64,000 bases of DNA from a virus (IMGVR_UViG_3300042890_004365:10510-74509); one strand, 5' to 3'; positions 14,976 through 63,793 are shown, counted from the first letter of the stretch. The notes: generated from the sequence alone by a model not told the origin. Translations and numbers: made by a program.

Positions 14976-15626
14976 ATGAAGTATTTAAAGATTTTTGAGA
15001 CATTTAAGAATAATGACACATTATATGTGTTCGATTTTGACGATACTCTTGTGAATACACCAGAGTTTGAAGAATTTGTTATTGAATACTTAACAGAAGA
15101 TGTTTCTATAAAAGAAATAGTAGATAAATCAACTGCAAGTATTGGAGTAAATAAGTCAGACTTAAAATGGCAAGATGGTAGAATTTATGTAGAAGATCCA
15201 AATGAGAACATTGAAGTAAAAGGAAACTGGGTTAGAAAAGGTAAAAGGATTTATCTTATGGCACCAGATATATTTGGTATGACTGATTTAAGTTTACCAA
15301 CTGAAGTATTAGAATTGGCAGAATTTTATAATTCAATTGAGAATAAATGTATAGTAACTGCTCGTTCAGAAAAGATTAGAGATAAAATTGAAAAAGTTAT
15401 GAAAGAGTTAGGATTAGAATATCCTAAATATGGACTTCATATGTATCCTTATGAAAATCACTATAATGCAGGTGGTTGGAAAGGTGAAAAGATTGTTGAA
15501 CTAGTTAAGCAAACTGGATTTGATAAGGTTATATTTTACGATGATAATATAAAGTATTTAAAAGGTGCTACTAAGGTAATTAAAGAGAAGTTACCTAACT
15601 TAGACTATAAGTATGTAAAAGTGTAA
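14976..15626 (+). CDS. HAD-superfamily phosphatase (RNA-repair HAD-like)
   Basis: DFDDTL motif I, VTAR motif II, K motif III, FYDD motif IV; N-terminal MKYLKIFETF tag. Confidence 0.75.
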   Translation: MKYLKIFETFKNNDTLYVFDFDDTLVNTPEFEEFVIEYLTEDVSIKEIVDKSTASIGVNKSDLKWQDGRIYVEDPNENIEVKGNWVRKGKRIYLMAPDIFGMTDLSLPTEVLELAEFYNSIENKCIVTARSEKIRDKIEKVMKELGLEYPKYGLHMYPYENHYNAGGWKGEKIVELVKQTGFDKVIFYDDNIKYLKGATKVIKEKLPNLDYKYVKV

Positions 15627-15674
15627 AAAAGACGTTTAATAATTTAATATATAATAAAAAAATAATAAACATAT

Positions 15675-15983
15675 ATGAAAACTAAAGTTGAAGTACTTGG
15701 ATATGAAATCGAAATTGAAGAAGTTGATGGTGTTGTAACTGTTAAAGCTGAATTAGATGGTGAAACAGTTGAAGAATTCACTCTTGAAGCACCTGAAGAA
15801 GGGCAAGGTCAAGATGAAGAATCAGATGACGACGTTAAAGGATTTAAAGATTTTGATGGTCAAGAAGAAGAAGATTTCGGAGACGAAGAATCAGAAGGTC
15901 AAGATGACGATGATGACGATGACGATGATGACGATGATGAAAAGGCACTAGAATCTTTTCAGTCTTTTTTCAATAAGAGATAA
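15675..15983 (+). CDS. Small highly acidic protein with poly-Asp tract
   Basis: (GAT/GAC)n run near 15903-15938; late box at 15644; C-terminal LESFQSFF. Confidence 0.75.
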   Translation: MKTKVEVLGYEIEIEEVDGVVTVKAELDGETVEEFTLEAPEEGQGQDEESDDDVKGFKDFDGQEEEDFGDEESEGQDDDDDDDDDDDDEKALESFQSFFNKR

Positions 15984-16053
15984 TAAGAAAGAGGATTTAG
16001 TCCTCTTTTTTTATAAATGAAATTTAATATATAATAAAAAATATTATAATACT

Positions 16054-17211
16054 ATGTTATTAAAATTTAATAATTTTATCAAAGAAAGTGTTGATGGTAA
16101 AGGAACTTTACTTTTTTATGCATTTGATTGGGATGACAATATACTAAACATGCCAACTGAAATTATGGTACAAACCGAAGATGGTGAAGAAGTTGGTATG
16201 AGTACAGCAGACTTTGCGGTTTATCGTTCTAAAATAGGAAAAGAAGAATTTGAATATGATGGAAAAACTATTGTTGGTTTAGATTATAATACTGCATTTA
16301 GAAATTTTAGAGATATAGAAGATCCAGAAATATTCAAAAAGGATGTTGCTAAGGCATTACAAATGGAAGCATTTGCACCTGCTTGGGAAGATTTTATTGA
16401 GTGTTTAACTAATGGTTCTTTATTTGCAATTATAACTGCACGTGGTCACGAATCAGAAGGAATGAGAAAAGGTGTTGAATATATTATCGACGGTTTAGAT
16501 CAACAAGATAAAGAGAAAATGCATGATAGTTTACTTATGTACCTTCAACTTTTTGGTAAATCAAGAAATGAAGAAAGTTATGAAAGTATTACAAATTTCT
16601 CTCAAAGTGAATTAGTTAAAAACTACTTAGATTTATGTCACTTTGTTGGTGTTTCTGCGCCTTCAAGAGGTGGTTCACCTGCTAATCCAGAAGCAGCAAA
16701 AGAAGATGCTTTAAGAGAATTTATTACTGATGTAAATGGATATGCAGAAAAAATTGGATTTGTTGCAAAAGTTGGTTTCTCTGATGATGACCCAGGAAAT
16801 GTTAAACATATGACACATGCACTTTCAAGTGAAGATTTAGATCACGAAGAATTGTGGCCTTTTATTAAAGAGTTCATCATTAAAGATACTAATAAACCAG
16901 AAAACGTAGTTAGAACTAATATACCTACAAGAAGAGTTAAAACATTTAGTGATTTTAATGAGAGCCAAACTCAAATTCCCGGACTACAAAGTTCAACTAT
17001 TTCTATGCAACCAGAAACTAATCTTATGATTATGGCAGATAAAACTAATGACTTTAGTGCAAATGGTGATGAAACTCGTCAAGATCCTTATGGTAATAGA
17101 TTAAAAGCTCAAGCTAGAAGATTAGGAAGTCAAGAATATTGTGCTTGTTGTGATAATACAAAATCAGAATGTGATTGTGATGACGGTTGTGAATGTAAAT
17201 GTAAAGAATAA
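16054..17211 (+). CDS. HAD-like protein with Cys-rich C-terminal tail
   Basis: FDWDDNIL, ITARGH, FSDDD motifs; tail CACCDNTKSECDCDDGCECKC; N-terminal MLLKFNNFIKES. Confidence 0.7.
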   Translation: MLLKFNNFIKESVDGKGTLLFYAFDWDDNILNMPTEIMVQTEDGEEVGMSTADFAVYRSKIGKEEFEYDGKTIVGLDYNTAFRNFRDIEDPEIFKKDVAKALQMEAFAPAWEDFIECLTNGSLFAIITARGHESEGMRKGVEYIIDGLDQQDKEKMHDSLLMYLQLFGKSRNEESYESITNFSQSELVKNYLDLCHFVGVSAPSRGGSPANPEAAKEDALREFITDVNGYAEKIGFVAKVGFSDDDPGNVKHMTHALSSEDLDHEELWPFIKEFIIKDTNKPENVVRTNIPTRRVKTFSDFNESQTQIPGLQSSTISMQPETNLMIMADKTNDFSANGDETRQDPYGNRLKAQARRLGSQEYCACCDNTKSECDCDDGCECKCKE

Positions 17212-18975: not shown

Positions 18976-19563
18976 TTATTTTAATCTTCTTTCTCTTCTT
19001 GAGAATCTATAACTTTTTGCCTCAAACTCAGGATCAATACGATCTTCATCTTCTAATTTTGGTGCATTTGGTGTAGTACCACCATTTAAGTAATCTACAA
19101 CTTGTTCAACTGTATCAAATTTCTTTCTATCAACGTGGAACTTTCCAGTTTCAGAAGGGAAAGTAATCTCTTTTCCTTTATCTTCTGGATTTTTTTTCAA
19201 GATAATTCTATTATTTTGAACTACATCTTCACCTAATTTTAAAGCTACTGCCAATTCTTTTAGTTTAGCTATATAAGGATCTTCTTCTTCTACTTCACCA
19301 TCAAACTCTTGACTTCCACCATCAGAGAATCCACCATCACCACCATCAAATGGATTATTTTTAGCCAATGGATTATCTTGTTCACTTGGAACATCATCTG
19401 GAATAACACCTGGTCTAGTTGGTCTAGGAGCAGTAGGTCTATCTGTATCTGGTCTAGTTGGAGTTTCAGTTTCTCTTCTTGTTGGTGCAGGAGCTTGTTC
19501 AGGTCCAGCAGTAAACTCTTCATTTATTTTGTCATCTACGAATTGATTATATCTTTTAATCAT
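18976..19563 (-). CDS. Hypothetical Pro/acidic-rich protein, candidate internal head protein
   Basis: MIKRYNQFVDDKINEEF N-terminus; late box at 19584-19593. Confidence 0.7.
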   Translation of the reverse strand: MIKRYNQFVDDKINEEFTAGPEQAPAPTRRETETPTRPDTDRPTAPRPTRPGVIPDDVPSEQDNPLAKNNPFDGGDGGFSDGGSQEFDGEVEEEDPYIAKLKELAVALKLGEDVVQNNRIILKKNPEDKGKEITFPSETGKFHVDRKKFDTVEQVVDYLNGGTTPNAPKLEDEDRIDPEFEAKSYRFSRRERRLK

Positions 19564-20337: not shown

Positions 20338-21066
20338 ATGAAATGGATCAAATTAAATGAAAGTTCCTTAAAATTAGGGAACGTAATGACTAAGAAATAT
20401 GGTGAATTTAACTCAATAGATTGGTTAAATGGGAAAATTAAAAAATATATCGAAAGTATATATGAACCATTTGGTTTTAGATATGGTGTGAATCAAGATT
20501 TAAACATAGAAGGTCAGATTATAAGTAGTGAATATATCAGTAAAATGGTAAATAACTATACCGTATTTAAAGTAATTATTAAGGAAAATTCTATTAGAAC
20601 AGAAGCGGCATTTTATCACTTTATGACTAATAATATGAAAGAAATATATCACTGGGAAGGTAAATACTTTAAACGTATTACTTTACCTGTTTTAATCAAT
20701 ACTTCCAGAAGAGGAAATGTAGGAGAACAAGATTCTCTAAGATTCTTTAAACAATCATTACAAGAAAAGAAAGGAATTTCTGTAAACTTTATTCCACCAA
20801 CCGTTGAAGAAGATATTTCTGGAATTGATGGTAAATTTATTTGGTTAGGTAAAGAAGTAACTATTCAAGTTAAACCTTATGATAGAGCCGTTATTAGCGA
20901 ATCAACAAGAAAAGTGAAAGTTCACTCACCAGGATCATTATCGTTGAATACAGACTACCTAGTCGTTTATAAAGGACAATCATTTATTATTGTAAGAGGT
21001 AAAGATGTTACAATAGAAGGAAATAACTTTACATTTCAAGAAGATAAAGTAGTAGCAAAAACATAA
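20338..21066 (+). CDS. Putative PD-(D/E)xK restriction-endonuclease-fold protein
   Basis: GNVGE...EEDISGIDGKF...TIQVK pattern (E..D..QxK). Confidence 0.5.
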   Translation: MKWIKLNESSLKLGNVMTKKYGEFNSIDWLNGKIKKYIESIYEPFGFRYGVNQDLNIEGQIISSEYISKMVNNYTVFKVIIKENSIRTEAAFYHFMTNNMKEIYHWEGKYFKRITLPVLINTSRRGNVGEQDSLRFFKQSLQEKKGISVNFIPPTVEEDISGIDGKFIWLGKEVTIQVKPYDRAVISESTRKVKVHSPGSLSLNTDYLVVYKGQSFIIVRGKDVTIEGNNFTFQEDKVVAKT

Positions 21067-21073
21067 AGTATAT

Positions 21074-21385
21074 ATGAAAAGAATTGATACATTTAATAAG
21101 TTTAATGAAAGTGAAGACAATAAAAGGTTTGTAGGTCCTAATGGAGAGTTTCAACCTACGGAACAACCAAAAGAAGGAACTACTACTATACAATTTATGG
21201 AGGAATTACTTGAATGGATATATTATCATGATAGTATGCCTTTTGAAGAAAAAATGAAATTCATAACTGGTATTGAAGAACAGATACAATTACTTCTAAA
21301 TGGTGATGGAGGTGGTGCTCCATTTGGTATGCCAATCAACTATATACCAACTTGGTCAACAAAACTAAAGAAAGATTTAGAATAA
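21074..21385 (+). CDS. Hypothetical protein, candidate internal head protein
   Basis: MKRIDTFNKFNES N-terminus; terminator at 21385-21413. Confidence 0.7.
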   Translation: MKRIDTFNKFNESEDNKRFVGPNGEFQPTEQPKEGTTTIQFMEELLEWIYYHDSMPFEEKMKFITGIEEQIQLLLNGDGGGAPFGMPINYIPTWSTKLKKDLE

Positions 21386-23631: not shown

Positions 23632-24057
23632 ATGAAATATATTAAACTTTTTGAGGACCTATTTGAAGATAATCTTCAAGACTTTTGTGACACTTATCTG
23701 GCTTATCTAAAAGACGAAGGATTTAATATTTATATTAATAGTGCGGGGTGGAAAGATGGTGAAATAACTATTTCACATCCTTGTGATAGTTACAATCCGT
23801 TTCGCAGAATAGATTTTATGCTTGACGATTTTTCTTGGAATGAAGTTAAGGACCACATTATTCCTTTTTTACAAATGTTATATAAAGAGTATAATTATGA
23901 TAAATCAACCGATAAAATACTATTTTTTACATCAAATGCCAAATATATTACTAAATCATTTGATGATGTTGTAAGTGATAAGATCTTTCCTGTAACAAAC
24001 ATGCCAATCAATAAAAGTATAAAAAAGATAATTATCAAAAAACCTTCTGAAAATTAA
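23632..24057 (+). CDS. Hypothetical protein, candidate internal head protein
   Basis: MKYIKLFEDLFED; TTTATATATA box at 23618-23627. Confidence 0.7.
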   Translation: MKYIKLFEDLFEDNLQDFCDTYLAYLKDEGFNIYINSAGWKDGEITISHPCDSYNPFRRIDFMLDDFSWNEVKDHIIPFLQMLYKEYNYDKSTDKILFFTSNAKYITKSFDDVVSDKIFPVTNMPINKSIKKIIIKKPSEN

Positions 24058-24903: not shown

Positions 24904-25875
24904 ATGATTAAAAACTGGAACCAATTTATCAACGAGAATGTCACTAACCCAGATAGTTATTTAGACATGAGAATGCAAGAAATCAAAGATTTACTTGACA
25001 ACACTGAAAATAGTGATACACTTATATATGAGTGGGAGAATAAAGATGACCATGAGTTGTTTATAAATTTTTCTGCAAATGGTATGAACGTTAGATATGA
25101 ATTTGACATTGATGATATGAAAGTTACTAAAATTGCAAATGATGTACACGACTTTACTGAAGAAGTTGAATCAATGGAAGAAGGAGTTGAAATGATTGAA
25201 AAAGATATTCACTCTATATTGGGTATATCTGAAAGTAAAGTAAATGAAGCAATCGTTGATTACAAAAATGATTCCATAGATGGTTTAATGGGAGAAATCA
25301 ATACATATCCGAGACACCATAGATTTCAAATACCGGAACTGACTGCACTTGGAGCAGAGTATGATATAGAGATTGTAGATTATAATACTTTCTTAAATGA
25401 TTTACCAGAAAGGGATAAAGCAACTGTACCACCAAGATCATCTCAGTTTTTTGCATTAGTAAATCCAGTTACAAAAAGACCTAGAGTTGTTTTAAATTTA
25501 CCAATGCCTTTTATACCAAAAGACTTCTTTGACCAAGTTCCACTTGGTGATATACTTAAACATGAACAAATACACGTTGGACAACATTCTAGAAGACCTA
25601 ATATAGATATGCCTTTACCAGAACCAAAAGATCAGAAAAAATATTTCTCTAATAAAGATGAAGTTATGGCATTTGCATTTTCAATTGCCAAAGAAGTAGT
25701 TACTATGTTTCCAACAATCACAACTCCTAAAGAAGGAATAGATAAACTTACACAAAATTCAAGTAGATTTAGATTATATGTTGATATTAAAAGAAATGTT
25801 GATCCATTTATCTTAAAAAGATACCACAAATATATCTACTTATATTTAGAAGACTTATTGAAAACCGAAGAATAA
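24904..25875 (+). CDS. Protein with C-terminal zincin-like HExxH domain
   Basis: LKHEQIHVGQ and downstream YFSNKDEVMAFA; N-terminal MIKNWNQFINE; internal ISES/VNEA. Confidence 0.65.
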   Translation: MIKNWNQFINENVTNPDSYLDMRMQEIKDLLDNTENSDTLIYEWENKDDHELFINFSANGMNVRYEFDIDDMKVTKIANDVHDFTEEVESMEEGVEMIEKDIHSILGISESKVNEAIVDYKNDSIDGLMGEINTYPRHHRFQIPELTALGAEYDIEIVDYNTFLNDLPERDKATVPPRSSQFFALVNPVTKRPRVVLNLPMPFIPKDFFDQVPLGDILKHEQIHVGQHSRRPNIDMPLPEPKDQKKYFSNKDEVMAFAFSIAKEVVTMFPTITTPKEGIDKLTQNSSRFRLYVDIKRNVDPFILKRYHKYIYLYLEDLLKTEE

Positions 25876-26141
25876 TGAAACACTTAAACTTATTTGAAGA
25901 ATTCAATTTTGATATTGAACCATTTGATGTTCATGGTAATGACCTTGAAGCTATTATCGATGACCAAGATTTTTCATTTAAAGTAATAGATGGTGAAGTT
26001 AGTTTCTCAAGTGATGATGACTATGAAAGAGCATTTGAAATGGGTATTGAACTGGATGATGAGTTAAAATCTTATATACTTGATGAGTATAATAAGATGT
26101 TAAGTAAAACTAGAATGAAAAGATTTGGTTTCTTTAAATAG
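25875..26141 (+). CDS. Small acidic protein, candidate internal head protein
   Basis: MKHLNLFEEF start; TAATG coupling to the upstream gene. Confidence 0.7.
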   Translation: MKHLNLFEEFNFDIEPFDVHGNDLEAIIDDQDFSFKVIDGEVSFSSDDDYERAFEMGIELDDELKSYILDEYNKMLSKTRMKRFGFFK

Positions 26142-27673: not shown

Positions 27674-28738
27674 ATGATTAGTAAGTACAACCAATTTTTA
27701 ATAAACGAATCTAAACTTATACTAGAAGCATTTTTAAGTGCAGATACAAGTTTTTTATCTAAATTAGATAAAATTTCAAGACAGTCAAATTTTTCCTCTA
27801 CAATTGCGGATATGCTTTTATCAAGAATTAATGATAAAGACTGGGTTTCTGAGGTGGATCTAAAACAAGATTTCTTTAAAACAACTGATGATAAAGACAA
27901 AGTATCTTTTATTCAAACAAATAGAGTAAAAGATGATGTAGATCCATATACAATGGCTGGTAGAAGTGATCTTAAAGTTGGTAGAGCTATAAAATATATA
28001 GCAAAAGATTTATATGACATTAAAATCACTGATAAACAAATAGAAGATTTTGTAAATGTTTATAAATCAATTGCAGATGAAGGAGAAGATGATTTTAGAT
28101 TTTATGTTGGTGATGAAATAAAATCAGGTTATATCGAAAAAAACTACTCTGATGCAAATTATGGAACTCTTGGTAGTTCTTGTATGACCGGACATCCATC
28201 ATTTCTTAAAATATACACTAAAAATGAAAAGAAAGTTAGATTACTAGTTCTTCTCGAAGATGGTAAAATATGTGGTAGAGCTTTAGTTTGGAAATTAGAT
28301 AAATCTCCTTGTGATGCAGAATATTTTATGGATAGGGTTTATACAAACCGTGATTACGAAGTAAATAAATTTACACAATATGCTGAGAAAAATGGTTGGT
28401 TATACAAACAAAGTATGACTTGTGGTGATTCTTGGGCAGTAAAGTTTAAATATAATAGGAAAGAAGTATTAGGAGAAATATCTGTTAAGATAGATGGTAA
28501 ACATCCTAAATATCCTTATATGGATACCTTATTTTGTTTAAATAAAGATAAAGATGAACTTTCTAATGTTCCTTCTTGGAAATGTTATAGATTATGGGAC
28601 ACCGATGGTGATCGTGAAAGATGTGATGATTGTGATGGTAAGTCAAAAAATAAAAATCTATGTTATGGTTGTTCTGAAGGTGTAATGGTTTTAAAACAAG
28701 CAGGTATTGAAATAGACGTTGAGAAAGGAAGAAGTTGA
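27674..28738 (+). CDS. Conserved phage protein (SCM..GRALVW..MDRVY family), paralogue of 40929..42071
   Basis: LKVGR, GTLGSSCM, GRALVW, FMDRVY, YPYMDT, C-terminal Cys pairs; start revised to ATG 27674 after late box 27659. Confidence 0.75.
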   Translation: MISKYNQFLINESKLILEAFLSADTSFLSKLDKISRQSNFSSTIADMLLSRINDKDWVSEVDLKQDFFKTTDDKDKVSFIQTNRVKDDVDPYTMAGRSDLKVGRAIKYIAKDLYDIKITDKQIEDFVNVYKSIADEGEDDFRFYVGDEIKSGYIEKNYSDANYGTLGSSCMTGHPSFLKIYTKNEKKVRLLVLLEDGKICGRALVWKLDKSPCDAEYFMDRVYTNRDYEVNKFTQYAEKNGWLYKQSMTCGDSWAVKFKYNRKEVLGEISVKIDGKHPKYPYMDTLFCLNKDKDELSNVPSWKCYRLWDTDGDRERCDDCDGKSKNKNLCYGCSEGVMVLKQAGIEIDVEKGRS

Positions 28739-29764: not shown

Positions 29765-30442
29765 TTATTTCTTTGTGAAAAAACTTTTTAAATGTTGCAT
29801 TGGATTAGTTTTACCTTTCCCATATTTCCCAGTATCCATATTAAGTATAGCATTTTTTGTAAGTGGATAATCATACTCTTCTTCTGTATAATTCATATTT
29901 CTCATATGATTATCATGTTCTGTATGTGAACTTTCTGGTCCACCTAAAAGAGGTTTCTCTTCCTGATTACTATGTGCTGTAATAAAGTTAAATACTTCTT
30001 CAACATCATCCTTAGAGGATGTAATATGATCTGATGCCCAGTCATGTTCTTTTAACATTGTATCGATTTCTGTTCTATCCATTTCTAATAACTTATCAAC
30101 TAATCTTTTGATAGTTTCTAAGTTAGAGAAAAACATATAGTTCTCTTCTTCATTGTTCTCTTTAATTGCTTTAAGTTTACTTAAAGTTTTAGCTAACTCC
30201 AATCTTCTTTTTTTAGTAGCATCTTTTTTATCTAATTGAGTACCTGGTTTTTTCTTATCTTTATCCTTAGCTTTTAATTTAGAAAGTTCTGAATCGATTT
30301 CTTTTTTAGAAATTTTCTCATCATCTTTTTTACCTAAAGATTTTTTTAATGCACCTGGATGTTTAATTGCATCTTTGATCCAATTTTTCTTCTCATTGAA
30401 CTCTTCTGAATTATCATTAAAGTTTTCAAATTTCTTAATCAT
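29765..30442 (-). CDS. Basic protein, candidate internal head/DNA-binding protein
   Basis: MIKKFENF..FNE; KKNWIKDAIKHPGALKKSLG basic module; late box at 30468. Confidence 0.7.
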   Translation of the reverse strand: MIKKFENFNDNSEEFNEKKNWIKDAIKHPGALKKSLGKKDDEKISKKEIDSELSKLKAKDKDKKKPGTQLDKKDATKKRRLELAKTLSKLKAIKENNEEENYMFFSNLETIKRLVDKLLEMDRTEIDTMLKEHDWASDHITSSKDDVEEVFNFITAHSNQEEKPLLGGPESSHTEHDNHMRNMNYTEEEYDYPLTKNAILNMDTGKYGKGKTNPMQHLKSFFTKK

Positions 30443-45242: not shown

Positions 45243-45830
45243 TTAAAATGGTGCATCATCATCTTCACCATAATCTTCATCAGTATCATCATTTAATCCT
45301 TCATCATAATAGAATCCAAATTCTAAAGTTTGACCTCTTTGACTTTCCCACATATCAAATTCTGAATCATATTGTGGTAGAATATCCATTTTTAATTTAT
45401 TTAAAAGATCAAAAACATTTATTACATCACTTAATCTTTCTCTATGACCCATAGAACATCTAATAGATAAATCTAAATTATCATTAGTAATAGATACATT
45501 TTCAATACCTTTATTTTTAAACATACCTCTTAATAGATATTTTAAGTGTTCCATATCATCATCTTCAATATCTTCATCACTTAAATCTGGATCTCTATCA
45601 CCATCTTTATTATCATAATGATCAAAGTTATGAGCTATCCCACCATAATACTCACTATCATAAAAATCTTCATCATCATCAGGTATCTCACCTGACATAT
45701 CAAAACGAGATGGTAAAGAGTTACTTTTTTTTCTAGAACCACCAGCCCAGTCATCATTCCAATCTTGATCTGTACCTTCCCAGGCATCATCATCAACTCT
45801 TTCTGTAAATCTTTTATACTTTTGTATCAT
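45243..45830 (-). CDS. Highly acidic hypothetical protein, candidate internal head protein
   Basis: MIQKYKRFTE start; D/E-rich. Confidence 0.7.
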   Translation of the reverse strand: MIQKYKRFTERVDDDAWEGTDQDWNDDWAGGSRKKSNSLPSRFDMSGEIPDDDEDFYDSEYYGGIAHNFDHYDNKDGDRDPDLSDEDIEDDDMEHLKYLLRGMFKNKGIENVSITNDNLDLSIRCSMGHRERLSDVINVFDLLNKLKMDILPQYDSEFDMWESQRGQTLEFGFYYDEGLNDDTDEDYGEDDDAPF

Positions 45831-45831
45831 A

Positions 45832-47241: not shown

Positions 47242-47634
47242 TTATATAGTGACTTCATGTGCGTTTTTATAATCAACCATAACTTGACCATCATTCATAC
47301 CTGGTTTTTTACTAACAAATCTACGTTTACAGTAAACTACAACAGATTTATCAACACCTTTTGCCTTACTATTATCCTTTGCAATCTCTGCAACTTTCTT
47401 AATAACTTCAGGAGTTGGTATATTATCTTTAACAACAATAACTACATGACTTCCTGGAACACCTTTTACGTGCATCCATAAATCGTCATTATCTGCAATA
47501 TTAAATGTTAAGTGGTCGTTAGACCTAGCATCTTTACCTAAATGAATAATAAATCCATCAACTTCCATTTTTTTAATATTAGGAAATTTATCTTTTTTGG
47601 ATTCATTAAATTGTTTATATTTCTTTAATCTCAT
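47242..47634 (-). CDS. Stand-alone NFACT-R (DUF814) RNA-binding domain protein
   Basis: GKDARSNDHLT, DLWMHVKGVPGSHVVI, A..SKA, V.K..G...GQV; start revised to ATG 47634 after TAATATATA 47639. Confidence 0.85.
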   Translation of the reverse strand: MRLKKYKQFNESKKDKFPNIKKMEVDGFIIHLGKDARSNDHLTFNIADNDDLWMHVKGVPGSHVVIVVKDNIPTPEVIKKVAEIAKDNSKAKGVDKSVVVYCKRRFVSKKPGMNDGQVMVDYKNAHEVTI

Positions 47635-47705: not shown

Positions 47706-49448
47706 TTAGTTAAGTAATCCTTGAGCATCAGAAACTTTGATAGTCATGAACTGTTTTTGTGGGTACCAACCAACTTCAGTTACAGCATATCTAGATCTAA
47801 GTAACATTCTTGGTGCGAATGTAGCCTCAGAGATGATGCTAATTGACTGAGCCATTAAGTAAGGTACGAAAATAATACCTGGTTGATCAGGGTTATTTTT
47901 TCTTCCTAAAACGATTCTGTTATCGTTATATCTCATGTATGGATCAACATAGATAGAGATGTCTCCGATTGAACCTACTGGGTACAATTGACCTTGAGAG
48001 TTCATTTTAGATTTCAATGGGTTGATAGTGTATCCTGCAATATCTTGTAATGCTGCAGCTAAACCTCCATTTGTGATTAAGTATTGAGCTGGCCCAACAC
48101 GTCCTTCTGTTGCAATGTAGTTAGAAGCATGAGCAATTTTCGTGATCAATTTTCTTTGTACAGCGTGAGTAGTTTCACCACCAATAGCACTAGTTCCAGT
48201 AGCATAAGTAGTATCTAAGTCAAACAAAGTTTGATTAGTGATAGCACCAGAGAAAGTACTTCCCGATAAAGGAGCATTTACTCTGTTTAAATCTCCCATT
48301 TCGAAGATTTTATTAACAATTTGTTTAGAGATTGTTTGAGACAATTCATTAACAAGGATTGATTCCATTTTTTGAACGATATCCATACCTGTGTTAGCTT
48401 TGATGTCTTCAATCTCAGTTCTTCTAAGTGCAGAAGATACTTCAATAGTACCAACAGCAACTGTTTTAGAAGAGATTTTTGGTCCGATAACTCCTGCGTA
48501 AGAATCATCATCTGTTTGTCTGTCCATTGGTGAAGATCCTGAAGATCTATCATTAGTTGTACTACCGTACCAGTTTGCAGAGAAACCAGGAATGTGATCT
48601 TCTAAAGCAGATACTAATGAAACAGCAACATTTGTTAAACTAGATCCAGTTGCTGCAATTTTAGTAATTGCCGCAGTCATTGCTTGAGTTGGACCAAATG
48701 TATTTCTTGTAGCATCATAAGCCCAAGTTGCAGCAACAGAACCACCAGCAGCATAACCATTAGCAGTATTAGCTTGTCTATAAGCTCTAAATATTGGAAA
48801 ACCATCGATACGAGAGAATCCTAAGAATTCAACCTGATTAAGTTTTGAACCATTTTCTACAGTAGCGATATTTTTAGTAGTTGTACCAGTAGAAATGTCA
48901 GCAAACAATCTACCACCTGATAAACCACCTTGTGTTTCAGTAATTACTGGAGTACCTGTAGCTAAAGCAGTTCTTAAATTTGCTTGTACAGTAGTTAATT
49001 CAGTAGCAGTAACTTTAAAAACTTGTGGTTTTTCGTCTGCAGCACCTGTACGAGTATCATCATATTGAAAGTCAATATAAAGTAAATCGATTTTCGGACC
49101 TGGAGTTGGTTTAACAGCAACTAAGTCAAGACCAATTGTTTGAGCAGCAATTTTCATTGCAACTGGTAACAAGTTTTGACCAACATCACCTGAACCAATT
49201 GTTCCTACTGTTGTTGTTGTAGCTGGACTACCACCTACTGTTTGACCTGCATAAAAAGCTGGTTGAGCAGCTAAAACTGAACCCATACCTGCTACGTTTG
49301 AAGCGTTTACATACGCATTCTCGTTGATTGAGTGAAATTCAGCATATTCTGACATCCATTCTACTCTATCACCTGTAACTCCCATGTTTTCCAACACTGG
49401 AGACCATTTTTTCATGGCTTTTTGATTATCTATTCTAATGTGTGACAT
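47706..49448 (-). CDS. Major capsid protein (gp23-like)
   Basis: KKWSPVLE, DLVAVKP, MESILVNELSQTI.KQI, IYVDPY, FVPY, TFAPRMLLRSRYA; start revised to ATG 49448; terminator at 47659-47688. Confidence 0.92.
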   Translation of the reverse strand: MSHIRIDNQKAMKKWSPVLENMGVTGDRVEWMSEYAEFHSINENAYVNASNVAGMGSVLAAQPAFYAGQTVGGSPATTTTVGTIGSGDVGQNLLPVAMKIAAQTIGLDLVAVKPTPGPKIDLLYIDFQYDDTRTGAADEKPQVFKVTATELTTVQANLRTALATGTPVITETQGGLSGGRLFADISTGTTTKNIATVENGSKLNQVEFLGFSRIDGFPIFRAYRQANTANGYAAGGSVAATWAYDATRNTFGPTQAMTAAITKIAATGSSLTNVAVSLVSALEDHIPGFSANWYGSTTNDRSSGSSPMDRQTDDDSYAGVIGPKISSKTVAVGTIEVSSALRRTEIEDIKANTGMDIVQKMESILVNELSQTISKQIVNKIFEMGDLNRVNAPLSGSTFSGAITNQTLFDLDTTYATGTSAIGGETTHAVQRKLITKIAHASNYIATEGRVGPAQYLITNGGLAAALQDIAGYTINPLKSKMNSQGQLYPVGSIGDISIYVDPYMRYNDNRIVLGRKNNPDQPGIIFVPYLMAQSISIISEATFAPRMLLRSRYAVTEVGWYPQKQFMTIKVSDAQGLLN

Positions 49449-49535: not shown

Positions 49536-51713
49536 TTATATACTTTTGAATCTTTCCATTATTGCAGTCATCTCATTATCAGACAATTTGTCTTCTTGGA
49601 TTAAAGCTTCGTGTGCTACTAATTTCTTAGTTGTAGATTCATTTTTTTTGATATTTCTAGTTCCCCAGAAATGCTCAATTTGATTTTCAGTTTTTAATAC
49701 GTCCTCTGGATATAATCTAGCTTGTGACAAGATAGATTTTTTAGCAGATTCGTTTAACTGACCCCAGATTGGCTTAATGTTTTCCGGCATCAATCTGATT
49801 ACTCTTTCTTCAAGAGATTCATTCTTTGTTGATAATGACTCTGCAATCAATGTAAGAACTTCTTTCTGTGTAAAATAACTACTTTCGTTTATATGTAGTT
49901 TAACATTTTCTTGTTCTTCGTCTGATAGTGCATAAAAGCTATCAACTTGTGATTTGTTTAAGAACTTTAAAAAGTTCAAATCACTGCTTTCAGAAACTTT
50001 ACGTTTTTTAGCTTCTTCAATTAATTTATTTATTGATTCAGAAAGTTCTGAGTCTTCTTCACCACTAAATTCTGGTAATTCTTGACCTTCTTCTTCTAAA
50101 CCTTCGTGTTCTTCACCTTCGTGTTCTTCACCTTCGTGTCCAGCAGCAAATTCAGCAGCATCTTCAGCAAATTCTTTAGCCTCTTCAGCAAATTCTTTAG
50201 CTTCTTCCGCGAAATCTTCGTGTCCTTCGTGTCCTGTGAATTCTTCATCTTCTCCAGCAAATTCATCATCATTTTCTTCAAAACCAGCGTCTTGTAATGT
50301 AGGGAATTGAGCTTCATCACCTTCAGCAGATTCATTTAATTTAAAACCACCATTTAATCTTTCAACGATCATTCCTTGATAAGAGATAGATTTATCTAAA
50401 CTTTCTGCAACATATTCTGAGTAAGCGATATTATCATCTAAATGTTCAGCAATGTATTCTGAGTAAGCAATGTTACCTTCAACATGCTCAGCTAAGTATT
50501 CAGAGTAAGCAATTGAGTTATCAACATTCTCAGCAATATATTCTGAGTAAGCGATGTTTTTGTCTAAGTTTTCTGCGATATATTCTGAGTAAGCAATATT
50601 CTTATCTAAGTTTTCAGCCAAGTATTCAGAATATTCAATGTTTTTGTCTAAGTTTTCAGCTAAGTATTCTGAGTAAGAGATATTTTTATCTAAGTTCTCA
50701 GCGATATATTCTGAATAATTAATGTTTTTGTCTAAGTTTTCAGCTAAGTACTCAGAGTATTCAATGTTTTTGTCTAAGTTTTCAGCAACATATTCAGAGT
50801 AAGCAATAGCTTTTTCTAAATTTTCTGCTAAATAATCATTGTGTTTAGCTAATTTATCAGTTGTATCTTTTAATGATTTATTTTCATTAACTACAACTTG
50901 GATTTTGTCCGCCAAATAATCTAAATATTTAGCAACTTGTGAATTAGTATTATTTAATTCTTCATAATACTCTAACAATTGTTCCAATTTCTGTGGGCTC
51001 ATATTACCTTTTGAAATTGCGTTTTTTACTTCACTTTTTGTTGAAGCAATCTCTTTAACCAAATACTGTGAATAGTCACTTAACTGTTTCTTGGTTACAA
51101 ATTCATCTTTGTTCATATTGAATAGTTCATTTATTTTTGACTCGTCAGATAATTCATATATCCTAAAGTTATTTTTTTCGATTTGTCCTTCTGGGCAAAA
51201 ACCTAACGATTCATTTAATACTCTAACACTCATTTTTGCCGATGCAAATCCAGGATCTGCAACAATGTCATAAGTGAAAAGTTTTTTCAATGATACTGAA
51301 CCATCTGATTCTGTTATACCAGCAGCTCTTGATGATACAAAAACTGGACATCCGTCATCAACTAATGATTTAGCTTCTTTACCCCAGTAAGTACTTAGTA
51401 ATTTTATTTCTCCAGCAACAATGTTCTTTTCAGTAACAAATTCTGCTTTTGTAATAATGTGTGATGCTCTTGATAACGAAGTATCAAAAACATCCGGGTG
51501 ATCGAATTCACCATAAACAACACCTAGGCTGCTCATTCTTTCATTCATTTCTTGTAATGCTGGTAAAAATTTCTCAGCTTGATATATCCTCTCATTACGA
51601 TTCTTTATACCAAACTCAGTAAAAGTACCACCCAATACATACTCCTTATTAGTAGAGGCTGACTCTCTAATAAGCGAACTTGTTGAATTTTCTACTATTA
51701 AAACCGGTTTCAT
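49536..51713 (-). CDS. Prohead protease (gp21-like) fused to a scaffold/core domain
   Basis: KNRNERIY, GEFDHP, VSSRAAG, TYDIVADPGF, followed by coiled-coil repeats and an acidic region. Confidence 0.9.
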   Translation of the reverse strand: MKPVLIVENSTSSLIRESASTNKEYVLGGTFTEFGIKNRNERIYQAEKFLPALQEMNERMSSLGVVYGEFDHPDVFDTSLSRASHIITKAEFVTEKNIVAGEIKLLSTYWGKEAKSLVDDGCPVFVSSRAAGITESDGSVSLKKLFTYDIVADPGFASAKMSVRVLNESLGFCPEGQIEKNNFRIYELSDESKINELFNMNKDEFVTKKQLSDYSQYLVKEIASTKSEVKNAISKGNMSPQKLEQLLEYYEELNNTNSQVAKYLDYLADKIQVVVNENKSLKDTTDKLAKHNDYLAENLEKAIAYSEYVAENLDKNIEYSEYLAENLDKNINYSEYIAENLDKNISYSEYLAENLDKNIEYSEYLAENLDKNIAYSEYIAENLDKNIAYSEYIAENVDNSIAYSEYLAEHVEGNIAYSEYIAEHLDDNIAYSEYVAESLDKSISYQGMIVERLNGGFKLNESAEGDEAQFPTLQDAGFEENDDEFAGEDEEFTGHEGHEDFAEEAKEFAEEAKEFAEDAAEFAAGHEGEEHEGEEHEGLEEEGQELPEFSGEEDSELSESINKLIEEAKKRKVSESSDLNFLKFLNKSQVDSFYALSDEEQENVKLHINESSYFTQKEVLTLIAESLSTKNESLEERVIRLMPENIKPIWGQLNESAKKSILSQARLYPEDVLKTENQIEHFWGTRNIKKNESTTKKLVAHEALIQEDKLSDNEMTAIMERFKSI
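50383..50844 (-). repeat. About 11 tandem 42-bp repeats encoding YSEY[LIV]AENLDKNI.
   Basis: Ten YSEY units plus one degenerate leading unit in the translation. Confidence 0.9.
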
Positions 51714-54638: not shown

Positions 54639-56405
54639 TTAGAATTCAAACTCCCCACCGGATTCAGGAGCAGCAGGTGCTTCAGGTGCGGCCTGAGGAG
54701 CGGCTTGAGCACCACCACCTTCTGGAGCGGCTTGAGCACCACCACCTTCTGGAGCAATTTGACCACCACCTTCTGGAGGTGCACCACCTTCTGCAGGCAT
54801 TCCAGCACCACCACCGCCACCTTCTGATGGCATACCAGGTTCACCAGTCGCACCGGCTGCAGCGTTCATAGCATCTTTATCCCAGTATTTTTGATTTTCT
54901 GCTTTTTCCTCAGGACTAAGTTTAAAGATATTATCCATAATCCACTCAATATGAAAATAAGGTTTTTCACCATTCATTACACCAAGCATTGTACCAACAA
55001 TACCCGCTTTCTTTTCTAAGTTATTTAATTTTTTCCATTCCTCAAATACCTGATTTGAGAAGAAAGTAACATCAACTCCATTAGTAAAGAATTCATCCTC
55101 TATAAACTCAGGGAATTCTATCAACATTTGTAATCTCAATGGTTTAACAATCAATTCTTTGAAGTTTGCTCTTAACCTACTAATAAAGTTATGAAATTTA
55201 ATCTCATCTCTTGTCATCTCAGCAGCATCAGTAACTAAATTACCACCACCATTATCACTTTCAAATCTCGACATTGGAATCTTAGAAGATCTTTTCAATG
55301 CTTTGAAGAACCAATCTAACATTGAATCATCATTTAAGTTATGTCCTTGTGGAGAAACTAATTCCATATTTGGTGTACCACCATCTCCATCAGGAAACCA
55401 AACTTGTTTGTTATAAGGTAAATGTTTAGAACCATTTATGGTCATCGTACCCAATGACTCATCCCATTCTACTTCTTCAGAATAATCATGTATCAATTGT
55501 CCTATTTGTTCTTCCGCTCTTTGTCTTGACATACCTTTAATCGGAATAGTAAACTTTTGATAAACAGTAGCATTGATAATGTTAAACATTATTCTCGTTT
55601 GTTGTAAAATCTTTAATTGATTATAAGGTTTGATTAAACCCTCTATATATGATGTTTCAGAAAATTCATTTTGAGTTGAATATGAAATATAAACTAGTTG
55701 TGAATCTAAAAATATTCTTCTTAATTGTGGATCTTCAGGAAACTGAATCCATAAGTGACCTATACTTGGCTCATATGCAGGAACTACTGTCTCTGGTCTA
55801 ATTCTATTAAATCCAATAATATTCTTCTTTTTATCATCGTAAATAATCTCAAGTGCCAAGTAACCATCAATCAAGAAATCCTTCATCATGTTCCAAGCAG
55901 TGATATTATCTGCGAATCCAAACTTATTATAAATTCTTTCAAAATACTCCTGGTATTTATCTTGTACTTCTTGTGAATAAGACGTTGGGAGTGCCGTAAT
56001 AGAACAGAAATCTTTCTCATCATTATATACTATACATTCGTCTGCAATAGTGCTTATAAAGTCTCTAATTTCGTCTTTGACTGAATACTCTCTTAAAATT
56101 CTTCTCTTATCTGCATAAGCTTTATCTAAATAGGGAATGGATTTTCTATTTAATACTGATGCAACGGCTCGTTGGCTAAAGAAGTCGTACATCGAATTTC
56201 CTTTAGCAGCATACGGATCTTCATTGATACCAATACCTACTTGATTCCTCACAATCATGTCATCGAAGTTCATTCCGTATGATGATAAGTTTCTTAAAAT
56301 CCTACTAAACAAACCTTTATTCTCAACTCCAGATGAATTTACCATCGCAAAGTTTGATCCAACGTTATTTTGATTTTCTTGACTGAAGTTATTATATGAC
56401 GCCAT
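54639..56405 (-). CDS. Portal protein (gp20-like) with Gly/Pro/Ala-rich tail
   Basis: IADECIV, FLIDG, KPYNQLKIL, SKIPMSRF, EMTRDEIKFHNFISRLR. Confidence 0.92.
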   Translation of the reverse strand: MASYNNFSQENQNNVGSNFAMVNSSGVENKGLFSRILRNLSSYGMNFDDMIVRNQVGIGINEDPYAAKGNSMYDFFSQRAVASVLNRKSIPYLDKAYADKRRILREYSVKDEIRDFISTIADECIVYNDEKDFCSITALPTSYSQEVQDKYQEYFERIYNKFGFADNITAWNMMKDFLIDGYLALEIIYDDKKKNIIGFNRIRPETVVPAYEPSIGHLWIQFPEDPQLRRIFLDSQLVYISYSTQNEFSETSYIEGLIKPYNQLKILQQTRIMFNIINATVYQKFTIPIKGMSRQRAEEQIGQLIHDYSEEVEWDESLGTMTINGSKHLPYNKQVWFPDGDGGTPNMELVSPQGHNLNDDSMLDWFFKALKRSSKIPMSRFESDNGGGNLVTDAAEMTRDEIKFHNFISRLRANFKELIVKPLRLQMLIEFPEFIEDEFFTNGVDVTFFSNQVFEEWKKLNNLEKKAGIVGTMLGVMNGEKPYFHIEWIMDNIFKLSPEEKAENQKYWDKDAMNAAAGATGEPGMPSEGGGGGAGMPAEGGAPPEGGGQIAPEGGGAQAAPEGGGAQAAPQAAPEAPAAPESGGEFEF

Positions 56406-59156: not shown

Positions 59157-59288
59157 CTAAAAATTAAATAAGTTTTTTATCTTTTTCTTTCTTATATAAT
59201 TCCTAGGAACAAAATTTGCAGTTGTAAAACCCGGATCTGAGACTAAATCAAATGTTTGTATATTAAATTGAGTGTAATCCATTTCCAT
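59157..59288 (-). CDS. 43-aa protein carrying a prohead-protease-like DxVxDPGF strand (not in the ORF track)
   Basis: MEMDYTQFNIQTFDLVSDPGFTTANFVPRNYIRKKKIKNLFNF*; overlaps the 3' end of gp55. Confidence 0.6.
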   Translation of the reverse strand: MEMDYTQFNIQTFDLVSDPGFTTANFVPRNYIRKKKIKNLFNF

Positions 59289-59628
59289 CGTTGGCACCAT
59301 TTATTGAGATAAGTCTAATTAAATGTTCATTATCTCCTTTCTTTTTATAAAGGTCATTCCATCCTTTAGCCAATCCTCTTTTAAAGATTTCTGTAAAATA
59401 AGCAAATGCATTGATTGATTTGTCTTCATTAAAATTGAACCAGTTTTGAAACATATCCAGTAAACCACTTTGGTAGCAATCTAGCTTGTCATCATTTGAC
59501 CAGTATCTCATCTTTCTTATTGTCTTTTTTGCTAATAACTCTAGCATTTTCTCCGCATTTCTTGTTAGTCGACCTTGTGCTTTTGACACAATGATCTCGA
59601 TGTATAATTCTTTATTATTTAAGTACAT
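59263..59628 (-). CDS. Late-transcription sigma factor (gp55-like)
   Basis: YLNNKELY start, NFNEDKSINAFAYFTEI motif; start ATG 59628 (or 59637). Confidence 0.8.
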   Translation of the reverse strand: MYLNNKELYIEIIVSKAQGRLTRNAEKMLELLAKKTIRKMRYWSNDDKLDCYQSGLLDMFQNWFNFNEDKSINAFAYFTEIFKRGLAKGWNDLYKKKGDNEHLIRLISINGANDGNGLHSI

Positions 59629-59630
59629 AT

Positions 59631-59674
59631 ATAGCATTTATTTTTTTTTTCAGAGTTGAACTCTGTAATGCTAT
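59631..59674 (-). promoter_or_regulatory. Stem-loop in the gp55 leader
   Basis: atagcatt/aatgctat (8 bp) plus cagagt/actctg (6 bp) enclosing an A-rich bulge next to the start codon. Confidence 0.5.
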
Positions 59675-59770: not shown

Positions 59771-60145
59771 CTAAACCAAAGTTTTATCAAAGAAAAATCT
59801 CGTACCAAATCCAGCTTCAACAACTTTGTCTTTAGGAAGTCCCTCGAACATAATACTATTCTTTCCAAAATCATATACACCTGAGGAATTAACACAAACC
59901 TTCATAAGTTCTTGTCCTTTATATTTTATACAAATAACTTTAGTACTCCAATTTTCTCCATACTCGTTGCCTCCAGAATTCTTCTCTATAGTCTCAGAAG
60001 ATTCTATATCATCATCTCCAATAAGTTCCTTCAATTTATCTTCTAAAGAGGATGCACTAATATAGTCATTATTATCATCTATCCAGTTATCTATTTCTTC
60101 TGATATATCATTGTTAAAATTTTCAAATAATTTTATATGTTTCAT
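59771..60145 (-). CDS. Hypothetical protein, candidate internal head protein
   Basis: Start revised to ATG 60145 (MKHIKLFENF); terminator at 59711-59746. Confidence 0.7.
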   Translation of the reverse strand: MKHIKLFENFNNDISEEIDNWIDDNNDYISASSLEDKLKELIGDDDIESSETIEKNSGGNEYGENWSTKVICIKYKGQELMKVCVNSSGVYDFGKNSIMFEGLPKDKVVEAGFGTRFFFDKTLV

Positions 60146-62227: not shown

Positions 62228-62297
62228 ATTTCTAATTTATTATTTTTTTATATTACTATATATTAAGGGAAAAAAGCCATTTTTTTCCTTTTTTATT

Positions 62298-63191
62298 TTA
62301 TTTCTTATTATTTCCCAAATCACCATTAGGATTATCATATCTTCTAGAGTTTTGCTCTCTGGATCTTAGAATATTATTAAACCAACGTGTTCTCTTCGGA
62401 GTCGTAAAAAATCCAGCATTTGACTCACCTGCAGTAGATCCACCTCGAACATTATTAAAAAAGTCAGAATAACCACCTTCTAATGTATATCCATTTAGAT
62501 CTGACATACCACCATTTTCTTTTGTATAACCAGGAAAGTCAACTCTATCTCTTCTAAATGCCGGATAATAAGTCTGTACTTCAAATGAAACGGTCATTTT
62601 TATTGAATTATCGGCCGTTAAATTCTTTTCCCTAGTCATCTCAATAGTATTTGAGTCTGGCATTAAGATAACTGCATCAATATTCATAAAATTATGTTCA
62701 AAATACATAAATTTATATATCCACAACGTATCCATAATAGCCTGACTACACTTAAAACTATCTATCTCACTTGATAAAGTAATTACCAAGTCATAACTAA
62801 CTGTTACAGGAACTGCTCTAATTCGACCTAGAACTTTTTTTATTTCAACTTCATTCTCAACAACAGTTCTTAACCAAACATTTGGATTTGCAAATTCATC
62901 TGAACGAATTGCAAATGACTTCATAGTTAGATGTCCTCTTGGTATAATATCAGTATTTAATTCAAGATATCTACCATTTCCAGTAGAATCACCAGAAACT
63001 ATATCGTCAGTAAATGTGTCTAACAAAAATCTTTCATCACCAGTCATTGAATAGTAGAAAGGAACTTCTACAAATTTATCACCTGAGGTAAATTTATTTA
63101 CCCATTTTACTTGGCCTTCTAGTGTATCTAATACACAGATGGTTAAATCTCTAAAGAATACGTCTTCAAAATTAAATCTATCTCCAATCAT
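62298..63191 (-). CDS. Tail sheath stabiliser/terminator (gp15-like)
   Basis: EVPFYY..DERFL, IPRG, AVPVTVSYDL, FEVQTYYP pattern; late box at 63197. Confidence 0.65.
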   Translation of the reverse strand: MIGDRFNFEDVFFRDLTICVLDTLEGQVKWVNKFTSGDKFVEVPFYYSMTGDERFLLDTFTDDIVSGDSTGNGRYLELNTDIIPRGHLTMKSFAIRSDEFANPNVWLRTVVENEVEIKKVLGRIRAVPVTVSYDLVITLSSEIDSFKCSQAIMDTLWIYKFMYFEHNFMNIDAVILMPDSNTIEMTREKNLTADNSIKMTVSFEVQTYYPAFRRDRVDFPGYTKENGGMSDLNGYTLEGGYSDFFNNVRGGSTAGESNAGFFTTPKRTRWFNNILRSREQNSRRYDNPNGDLGNNKK

Positions 63192-63238
63192 ACAAGTATA
63201 TATTAAAAAATATAAGTCTCTAATTTAATATATACTTT

Positions 63239-63793
63239 ATGAATTATATCAAACTATTTGAAGATTTTACATTCTCTGATTTATACGATAAGAATAAATG
63301 GGTTGAACTTTCTATGGAAGATAGAAAAAAACTAAAAAAAGAGATATGGGAAATTGTTGACCTAGCATATAAACCACTTGGTGGTCATGTTAGAATATCA
63401 AGCCCTGATGCAGTAGTAAATGATCCAGACTTAACTTTTTGGACCGCAGTTGATATAGATAATGATCCTCACGCAGATGTTGTTATATTCTCTAGAGAAT
63501 CTCACGGACATAAAATTTCTGGCTGGGGTCATGATGGAACAAAGGAAGCTAGAAAGGAACTAATGAAACAATTGATTATCCTATTACATAAAGAAGGATT
63601 TTGGATTGAAGTTTCAGGAAGACCAGCAGAGATACTTATAAGTGCAGATTGTAAATATTGTGATAAACAAACTGTTAGTAAAATCTTTCCTAACTCAGAG
63701 ATAAACTGGATAAGAAAAGGTCTTTACACAAGAACTCTTCCAGACCATACTGTAACAGAAGAAGAATACTTAATTGGTCGTCCAAAAGTATAA
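63239..63793 (+). CDS. Hypothetical protein, candidate internal head protein
   Basis: MNYIKLFEDF start; late box at 63225. Confidence 0.7.
   Translation: MNYIKLFEDFTFSDLYDKNKWVELSMEDRKKLKKEIWEIVDLAYKPLGGHVRISSPDAVVNDPDLTFWTAVDIDNDPHADVVIFSRESHGHKISGWGHDGTKEARKELMKQLIILLHKEGFWIEVSGRPAEILISADCKYCDKQTVSKIFPNSEINWIRKGLYTRTLPDHTVTEEEYLIGRPKV

Follow-up and report, generated by a model that had tools for sequence, protein, structure and literature searches.

Why should proteins with nothing else in common begin with nearly the same few residues? The question is raised by IMGVR_UViG_3300042890_004365:10510-74509, a 64,000-nucleotide stretch of viral DNA (hereafter the window; bases 10510-74509 of a 74,509-bp contig), in which 15 proteins start with a tag of 8-17 residues that has two aromatic or hydrophobic positions three apart and ends in [I/L/F/V]-x-Glu. 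This tag is a discrete, position-specific, protein-level signal that occurs far above chance, and its motif is the same as that at the end of the capsid propeptide and in about ten scaffold repeats encoded in the window. Our preferred explanation, to which we give a probability of about 0.58, is that the tags are propeptides that would join the scaffold core by mimicking its repeats and would be cut after Glu by a gp21-type protease, leaving the mature proteins in the head.

The tag and the proteins that carry it

The contig is part of the genome of a giant T4-like phage; its clade is widespread, and none of the members that we know of, this phage included, is in culture. The closest database records are complete genomes, 635-735 kb long, of uncultured phages. 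Its capsid protein is 70-72% identical to those of LR745206.1 and LR756502.1 and, more distantly, 29% identical to those of Lak phages and 28% to that of Tenacibaculum phage PTm1, and relatives of it are encoded in 234 stretches picked up by a pattern scan of IMG/VR. GC content of the window is about 29%. Comparisons were made with LR745206.1, a complete 635-kb relative that was fetched whole and in which 942 open reading frames (ORFs) of at least 50 aa were called, and with 80 IMG/VR loci, which supplied 1680 ORFs to the counts of regular expressions (regexes).

A first-pass annotation had listed about 15 unrelated proteins in the window with a start like a capsid-targeting sequence, and every one of these N-termini is present at the position and on the strand given there. 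The number proved too small for the phage as a whole: 18 of the 77 ORFs of the contig, about one gene in five, are tagged, with three further starts (MRNIENFNKFN, MKYLKKINE and MRYLKSINE) in the 10.5 kb upstream of the window, and full-length relatives have about 70-120 tagged ORFs each. The starts at 27674 (+), 47634 (-) and 60145 (-) are internal ATGs of longer, mechanically called ORFs. The window's tags are as follows, with a slash after the terminal Glu, orthologous starts taken from LR745206.1, and "box" denoting an upstream T[AT]ATATATA sequence.

14976..14999, plus strand: tag MKYLKIFE/T of a 216-aa HAD-like protein (14976-15626); box ends 5 nt before the ATG
16054..16086, plus strand: tag MLLKFNNFIKE/S of a 385-aa protein (16054-17211); orthologue starts MIKKFNQFLE
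19519..19563, minus strand: tag MIKRYNQFVDDKINE/E of a 195-aa protein (18976-19563); orthologue starts MIKKYNQFVNDRINE
20338..20361, plus strand: tag MKWIKLNE/S of a 242-aa protein (20338-21066); the orthologue has a different tag, MKKFTEYIKE/S
21074..21109, plus strand: tag MKRIDTFNKFNE/S of a 103-aa protein (21074-21385); no box of its own, follows the box-bearing gene at 20338
23632..23655, plus strand: tag MKYIKLFE/D of a 141-aa protein (23632-24057), whose mature part is related to a tagged contig protein upstream of the window
24904..24936, plus strand: tag MIKNWNQFINE/N of a 323-aa protein (24904-25875); orthologue starts MIKKWNQFIRE
25875..25898, plus strand: tag MKHLNLFE/E of an 88-aa protein (25875-26141)
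27674..27709, plus strand: tag MISKYNQFLINE/S of a 354-aa protein (27674-28738) within ORF 27587-28738; box ends 5 nt before the internal ATG; orthologue starts MLTKYESFLLE
30392..30442, minus strand: tag MIKKFENFNDNSEEFNE/K of a 225-aa protein (29765-30442)
38403..38426, plus strand: tag-like start MKVDKYFE/F, the least typical of the 15, of a 248-aa phrog_36119 protein (38403-39149); orthologue starts MKLNKFYEF
45801..45830, minus strand: tag MIQKYKRFTE/R of a 195-aa acidic protein (45243-45830)
47602..47634, minus strand: tag MRLKKYKQFNE/S of a 130-aa NFACT-R protein (47242-47634), directly downstream of the capsid gene
60122..60145, minus strand: tag MKHIKLFE/N of a 124-aa protein (59771-60145) within ORF 59771-60226; no box within 100 nt
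63239..63262, plus strand: tag MNYIKLFE/D of a 184-aa protein (63239-63793); orthologue starts (mv)MKHLKAFEE

Three tag classes were defined in LR745206.1: A1, MKYLKxYK[IL]FE[SA] (24 ORFs); A2, MK[YH][IL]K[LI]FExF (17 ORFs); and B, MIKK[YFW]NQF[IL]NE (40 regex matches, some of them false). The motif exceeds composition-matched shuffles, in which residues 2-16 were permuted within each protein: the class regexes match 71 of the 942 first starts of LR745206.1 against a mean of 8.6 (maximum 17; 200 shuffles), 9 of 77 in the contig against 0.8 (maximum 4; 200 shuffles), and 101 of 1680 ORFs in the IMG/VR loci against 14.4. At internal Met residues of LR745206.1 they match 15 times in 2737. The looser pattern M.{2,5}[FYW]..F finds 100 first starts and 21 alternative starts in that genome (internal Met, 59 of 3127), and a regex built from T4 IPII and IPIII alone, M.{1,5}[FYW]..[FY][ILV].E, picks out 22 of its ORFs where 1.3 are expected. 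Conversely, IPII and IPIII are recovered from 20 kb of T4 sequence by the regexes derived from the clade, together with one false positive, T4 lysozyme. An IMG/VR scan for exact MIKK[YF]xxFINE returned 49 matches from 28 families, 48 of them without an in-frame upstream ATG and 42 heading frames open for at least 90 codons.

The elements of the tag also hold to definite positions. In LR745206.1 the [FYW]..F element ends at residue 10 in 54 ORFs, at residue 8 in 23 and at residue 9 in 20, over a background of 4.8 at each position; 46 ORFs have an [IL].E that ends at residue 11 (background 13.1) and 36 an F.E that ends at residue 9 (background 3.3). Among the 81 tags of this genome, alternative starts included, 73 have an [ILVFYM].E ending by residue 17, and the terminal Glu falls at residue 8 (15 tags), 11 (36) or 12 (10). 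Residue P3 of the 73 is I in 27, L in 23 and F in 15 (65 of 73 in these three), and P1' is most often S (26), followed by E (12), N (7) and A (7). The tripeptide [IL]NE peaks at residues 11-15, whereas [IL]ND, [IL]NQ and [IL]NK have no such enrichment. The tag is probably a short amphipathic helix.

What follows the tag is not shared. With the first 15 residues removed, no two of the 15 tagged proteins of the window are related at E<0.01 (BLASTP) and the 18 of the contig form 17 clusters, and the 81 of LR745206.1 form 75 after removal of 14 residues; at the level of sequence, the tag is portable across unrelated families. Orthologues in the contig and LR745206.1 are both tagged though the rest of the protein has diverged to 34-51% identity, and the class of tag can switch between them (MKWIKLNE/SS versus MKKFTEYIKE/SS). 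The NFACT-R protein (Pfam NFACT-R_1, E 1.3e-13, from residue 24) has 58 blastp matches in the IMG/VR loci. Its mature part mostly begins [SG]KKDKFPN, and the leaders of its orthologues vary over 8-18 residues and several classes, from MKYLKYFE to MTSIVENNVIKYDQFITE; in an alignment of 40 sequences, all 40 have the Glu (E11) before [SG]KKDKFPN. In an AlphaFold model of this protein (mean pLDDT 85.8) residues 1-14 score below 50, which places the tag, in the one protein modelled, outside the predicted folded domain. The 195-aa acidic protein at 45243-45830 likewise has 52 blastp matches in the IMG/VR loci, and their N-termini carry variable tags.

Function could be assigned to few of the tagged proteins in the window. 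The first-pass annotation had named two HAD phosphatases, a nucleotidyltransferase, a zincin, a putative nuclease and NFACT-R among them, and of these NFACT-R stands; the protein at 14976 has sub-threshold HAD matches only, plus a visible DxD motif, and Pfam, NCBIfam and PHROGs found no second HAD protein, nucleotidyltransferase, zincin or nuclease among the tagged window proteins and no family match for the protein at 16054. In the tagged set of LR745206.1 the Pfam domains are unrelated to one another, with NUDIX twice, a SMODS-associated NUDIX, PPK2, NFACT-R, a methyltransferase, a 2H-phosphoesterase plus exonuclease, an Rnl1-type RNA ligase and a PolyA_pol-type nucleotidyltransferase; a match in this set to 2H/Acb1-like phosphodiesterases is weak. 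Tagged proteins have a pI below 6 in 74% of cases and a median mature length of 175 aa, and in several of class A1 the tag is followed by an acidic D-I-x-x-E-L stretch. Tagged contig genes have a match in LR745206 less often than untagged ones (11 of 18 versus 51 of 59, p=0.036), and this lower conservation would fit an arms-race cargo set.

Tagged genes also tend to lie behind the box, as had been claimed for most of them: in the window 11 of the 15 tagged genes have it upstream, compared with 15 of the 52 that lack a tag (Fisher p=0.003). In LR745206.1, 44 of the 81 tagged genes have [AT]ATATATA in the 100 nt before them, as do 186 of the 861 untagged genes, and AATATATA alone lies upstream of 36 of 81 and 145 of 861, respectively (p=4e-8). 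The box seems akin to the T4 late promoter, TATAAATA, and may act as a late signal. The protease-scaffold-capsid operon, a head-closure gene and genes of the tail cluster have it upstream too, and none was found before the DNA polymerase, primase, ClpP and RNase R genes. The annotated absence of the tag from replication genes holds as well, and it extends to other functions: helicase, primase, DNA polymerase, IF3, ClpP, RNase R, methyltransferase and the gp55-like factor are all untagged.

The distance of the box from the start codon is an observation in its own right. For the window genes at 14976, 20338, 23632, 24904, 27674, 38403, 47634 (-) and 63239, and genome-wide in LR745206.1, two sharp distances are seen, 4-5 nt (82 genes in LR745206.1) and about 19-25 nt. 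If the box is a T4-type late promoter, the close class would give leaderless or near-leaderless mRNAs. The phage has its own IF3 gene, at 22880-23413 (-).

The head module and the T4 precedent

The motif of the tags recurs in a head module of T4 type, with gp23-like, gp20-like and gp21-type components:

49536..51713, minus strand: 725-aa prohead protease (gp21 fold, residues ~1-170) fused to scaffold; start MKPVLIVE/N; phrog_207, E 1.2e-27
50392..50825, minus strand: about ten 14-residue scaffold repeats, NIAYSEY[ILV]AE/NLDK (TRF period 42, 10.3 copies)
47706..49448 (also delimited as 47706-49517), minus strand: gp23-like major capsid protein (Pfam Gp23, E 3.4e-29)
54639..56405, minus strand: gp20-like portal protein (Pfam Portal_T4, E 3.8e-59)
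59263..59637, minus strand: gp55-like late sigma factor (phrog_234, E 2.2e-7)

The protease aligns with T4 gp21 (NRNERIY with NRNKRLY, GEFDHP with GELNHP, VSSRAAG with VSSRGLG), such that H72 corresponds to T4 His85 and S127 to T4 Ser140, presumably the catalytic residues of gp21; both are invariant in 29 aligned sequences. Searches of PDB sequences with the protease-scaffold profile and the protease domain gave no match, nor did Pfam for the protease. The best Foldseek match of its model, which is of modest quality (pLDDT 62), is T4 gp21 (5jbl, E 8e-5, TM 0.50-0.63), followed by herpesvirus proteases, so that the window is predicted to encode a protease of the gp21, or herpesvirus-type assemblin, fold. 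Besides its repeats, the scaffold has an acidic stretch and further sites of the same kind (VLNE/S, KLNE/S, HINE/S and QLNE/S), and the capsid protein begins with a 43-residue propeptide (MSHIRID...EYAEFHSINE/NAY) whose end aligns with T4 gp23 FGSFLTE/AEIG; the SINE, VLNE, KLNE and HINE sites had been recognized by the first-pass annotation. In the set of 80 IMG/VR loci the capsid site is invariant among the matches listed that reach it. Capsid and scaffold are the expected substrates of the protease because T4 gp23 and gp22 are analogous. The portal protein starts MASYNNFSQE/N, with Y4, F7 and E10 at the spacing found in the capsid targeting sequence (CTS) of T4; its LR745206 orthologue starts MASYNNFSGG, without Glu.

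The likeness to T4 that had been proposed for the tags is borne out by their residues. T4 IPII and IPIII start MKTYQEFIAE and IPI starts MKTFKEF, and the phage tags, like this CTS, sit at the very N-terminus, span about ten residues and have an aromatic residue and Phe three apart (the T4 targeting determinant) followed by [IL]-x-Glu (the cutting determinant). Class B keeps the T4 pattern exactly, as M-I-K-K-[YFW]-N-Q-F-[IL]-N-E, and the scaffold repeat YSEY[ILV]AE nearly equals the CTS core YQEFIAE. According to the account in PMC9026906, the first 10 residues of IPIII are enough for loading, with residues 4 and 7 as the main targeting determinants and residues 8 and 10 as those of processing, and CTS and CTS-like sequences were already known from T4 and close T-even relatives. 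The work of Mullaney and Black 1996 on the CTS of IPI, IPII and IPIII, which gp21 removes, is covered by PMC9026906 and PMC5694885. As in T4, the tag sits on otherwise unrelated proteins encoded by variable accessory genes, in a phage with gp21-, gp23- and gp20-type head genes.

Differences are equally clear. T4 has three internal proteins and Alt, with about 1000 internal-protein copies per head and a 65-residue gp23 propeptide in the description of PMC5694885, whereas the clade has its ~70-120 tagged ORFs per genome and several interchangeable tag classes; its candidate cargo is mostly acidic and enzyme-like, that of T4 small and basic. Because they are acidic and some have enzyme domains, the tagged proteins are not homologues of the T4 internal proteins and share with them the tag alone. 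The fusion of the protease to a scaffold whose repeats carry the tag motif is a further departure from T4. Loading and cleavage are attributed to the clade by analogy. Similar starts are found on T4 structural proteins: the core and shell proteins gp21, gp22, gp67, gp68 and gp24 begin MNEPQLLIE, MLKEQLIAE, MEGLIE, MLLIPE and MAKINE, each with [IL]-x-E within the first 4-10 residues, and it is these that class A tags (MKYIKLFE) and the protease-scaffold start MKPVLIVE resemble, although the phage puts the same kind of start on unrelated accessory proteins. For cutting at every one of these T4 sites, PMC9026906 and PMC5694885 give only partial documentation.

Other large phages provide a second comparison. 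As outlined in PMC5694885, phiKZ, 201phi2-1 and SPN3US have many head proteins and a gp21-related protease that cuts after Glu, and their diverged paralogues have short N-terminal propeptides in common. Their cleavage motif is [S/A/G]-x-E or A-x-E, that of the clade tags [I/L/F]-x-E, and in SPN3US only eight head proteins are processed (PMC5694885). All three belong to a separate phage lineage. SPN3US is described as carrying more than 40 MDa of ejection proteins. The treatment of these three phages in PMC5694885 mentions no portable leader common to dozens of unrelated families, and a limited collection of literature, including a jumbo-phage comparative review, contained nothing that links such tags to huge phages or reports a similar expansion.

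Several neighbouring genes merit mention. Two adjacent genes at 6582-8606 (-; 674 aa, with a phage lysozyme domain at the C-terminus) and 8613-11654 (-; 1013 aa) both start MSKIQ.FID, similar to the CTS core Q-E-F-I with Asp in place of Glu; in T4, Asp at this position is reported to prevent cutting and permit loading (PMC9026906). A 1582-aa protein without family match (33644-38392, +) lies directly upstream of the tagged phrog_36119 gene at 38403. The family B DNA polymerase at 21416-22846 (-) appears to be split: the match of this 476-aa ORF to phrog_262 is confined to positions 475-839 of the profile, its C-terminal half. Three genes of the Endonuclease VII/HNH-like kind (phrog_1035) lie apart from one another in the contig, at 43068-43682 (-), at 56392-57090 (-) and upstream of the window, one of them directly upstream of the portal gene. 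The window also encodes a gp5-like baseplate hub, ClpP, IF3 and RNase II/R, and no tmRNA was found in it by ARAGORN or by Rfam at the gathering threshold. Relatives of the phage appear in RNA libraries of several studies: contigs from four freshwater metatranscriptome runs match parts of 44000-52000 at 90-99% identity, chiefly in the capsid and protease-scaffold genes, and, coming from relatives and lacking transcript ends, are silent on the tags and the box.

Competing explanations

Under the propeptide reading, the tag would copy a motif of the core proteins, seen in the scaffold as Y-S-E-Y-I-A-E, at the end of the capsid propeptide as Y-A-E-F-H-S-I-N-E and at the protease start as MKPVLIVE, and it is this copying that leads us to propose that tagged proteins co-assemble with the scaffold core inside the prohead. 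The gp21-type protease would then cut after Glu and free the mature protein, which would remain in the head and leave it with the DNA at the next infection. Core binding, cleavage, retention in the virion and delivery are steps that we infer. Capacity is not prohibitive on rough arithmetic, since a head for 635 kb would have several times the volume of the T4 head.

A number of observations count against this reading. Class A tags (MKYLKxYKIFE) fit the residue spacing of T4 less well, with the aromatic/hydrophobic pair in another register. The tagged proteins have a median pI of 4.9 versus 5.7, whereas the T4 internal proteins are basic, and some of those tagged in the relative (the Rnl1-type RNA ligase, the PolyA_pol-type nucleotidyltransferase, PPK2 and NUDIX) are cytoplasmic enzymes in other phages. 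The scale of the cargo would be unusual, at ~8-13% of the ORFs of a full-length relative. No box lies within 100 nt of 37 of the 81 tagged genes of LR745206.1, and the untagged helicase and IF3 genes are also preceded by one. The regex counts contain some false positives, for example LigA, SpoVR, S1 and Hc1 proteins. Finally, in head-gene regions of distant relatives the class regexes find none of 38 ORFs in LR756500, none of 30 in Lak-C1 and none of 21 in PTm1, a cultured distant relative in which a 25-kb region around the capsid gene was examined. Around the capsid gene of LR756501 (52% capsid identity) many leaders end in [FILV]-x-E, such as MIKRFNNFVKE/S, MNKLKTYKTFE/N and MENLNDYKQFNE/N, and 3 of the 30 Lak-C1 ORFs near the capsid gene (MK250029.1 1227-43209) share another leader, MNK[LQ]I[KR].L[IL]E[SN]LFDD.DD (as in MNKLIKRLIE/SLFDD), possibly the counterpart of the tag in that clade.

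Much of this could also be explained if the tag were an N-terminal interaction or localization helix for a target other than the capsid, such as a chaperone, a protease adaptor or an intracellular compartment, and its likeness to head proteins convergent. The very large tagged share of the proteome, the acidity of the tagged proteins and the resemblance of many to cytoplasmic enzymes would be expected of such a helix, as would the 37 tagged genes without a box, and the phage encodes ClpP. It leaves unexplained, however, why the tag ends in [IL]-x-Glu and not in Asp, Gln or Lys, why the junction Glu stays invariant while the rest of the tag changes, and why the same extended motif occurs at the end of the capsid propeptide and in the scaffold repeats; no candidate partner was identified. 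We regard this as unlikely, though the strongest of the alternatives.

Somewhat less probable is that the tags are true propeptides of the prohead protease on proteins that mostly serve as transient parts of the core or its assembly, degraded or expelled like scaffold. The similarity of the tags to scaffold and protease sequences speaks for it, as do the acidity of the proteins, reminiscent of the acidic stretch of the scaffold, and the further [IL]NE sites in some of them. Yet many tagged proteins of the relative are folded enzymes (NUDIX, PPK2, RNA ligase, nucleotidyltransferase), the NFACT-R model is confident and compact, and the set is highly variable between close relatives, for which accessory cargo is the better fit.

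An origin at the level of nucleotides or translation, in AT-rich and perhaps leaderless genes, or as an artefact of composition, is largely refuted and in our estimate very improbable. It draws on two features: in LR745206.1 the box ends within 8 nt of the ATG in 28 of 81 tagged versus 75 of 861 untagged genes, and GC content in codons 2-12 is 20% in tagged versus 25% in untagged genes. The same arrangement next to the box is thus present in 75 genes that have no tag. Shuffled N-termini do not reproduce the matches, and the AT-rich relatives in which none of 38 and none of 30 ORFs matched have 25-26% GC. Synonymous codon use within the tags is ordinary (AAA 0.67 versus 0.77 and 0.74 elsewhere, TTT 0.74 versus 0.77 and 0.71, GAA 0.75 versus 0.78 and 0.72), and therefore the signal lies at the protein level; substitutions are conservative in amino acid (Y/F/W and I/L/V), and the codon of the conserved Glu includes a G. 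Composition and mRNA-level signals were rejected on the strength of the shuffles, the codon ratios and the AT-rich relatives. Rejected likewise, from the BLASTP clusters, and barely credible, is a single expanded paralogous family with the tag as its conserved N-terminus, to which a few small paralogue groups and the D-I-x-x-E-L stretch of class A1 might point, but which is at odds with 75 clusters among 81 proteins (17 among the contig's 18), unrelated Pfam domains and orthologues of one protein that carry different tag classes.

A possible virion-delivered proteome

Extended from the contig to its relatives, the propeptide reading becomes more tentative, and we hold the following to be possible at somewhat less than even odds: that this freshwater clade of giant T4-like phages loads about a hundred proteins through one interchangeable N-terminal address that mimics the scaffold repeat, and delivers them with the DNA as a "first-strike proteome". 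The proposed cargo would comprise nucleotide-signal hydrolases, RNA-repair enzymes, a polyphosphate kinase and the NFACT-R protein. Relative to the known CTS of T4, what is new here is probably the massive expansion of tags in a giant-phage clade. The class B tags are almost the T4 sequence, which brings the hypothesis within reach of the existing T4 expression-packaging system. The scaffold repeats in turn suggest how the capsid targeting sequence is recognized, a point that PMC9026906 and PMC5694885, as far as their accounts of T4 go, leave unsettled.

If the tags work as in T4, a rule read from sequence would predict the virion-delivered proteome of uncultured giant phages from metagenomes, something normally impossible without the host, and would single out candidate early-acting anti-defence and takeover proteins, among them the NUDIX, 2H/Acb1-like, RNA ligase and PPK2 proteins. 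Capsid cargo could then reach a diversity well beyond that of the handful of internal proteins in model phages.

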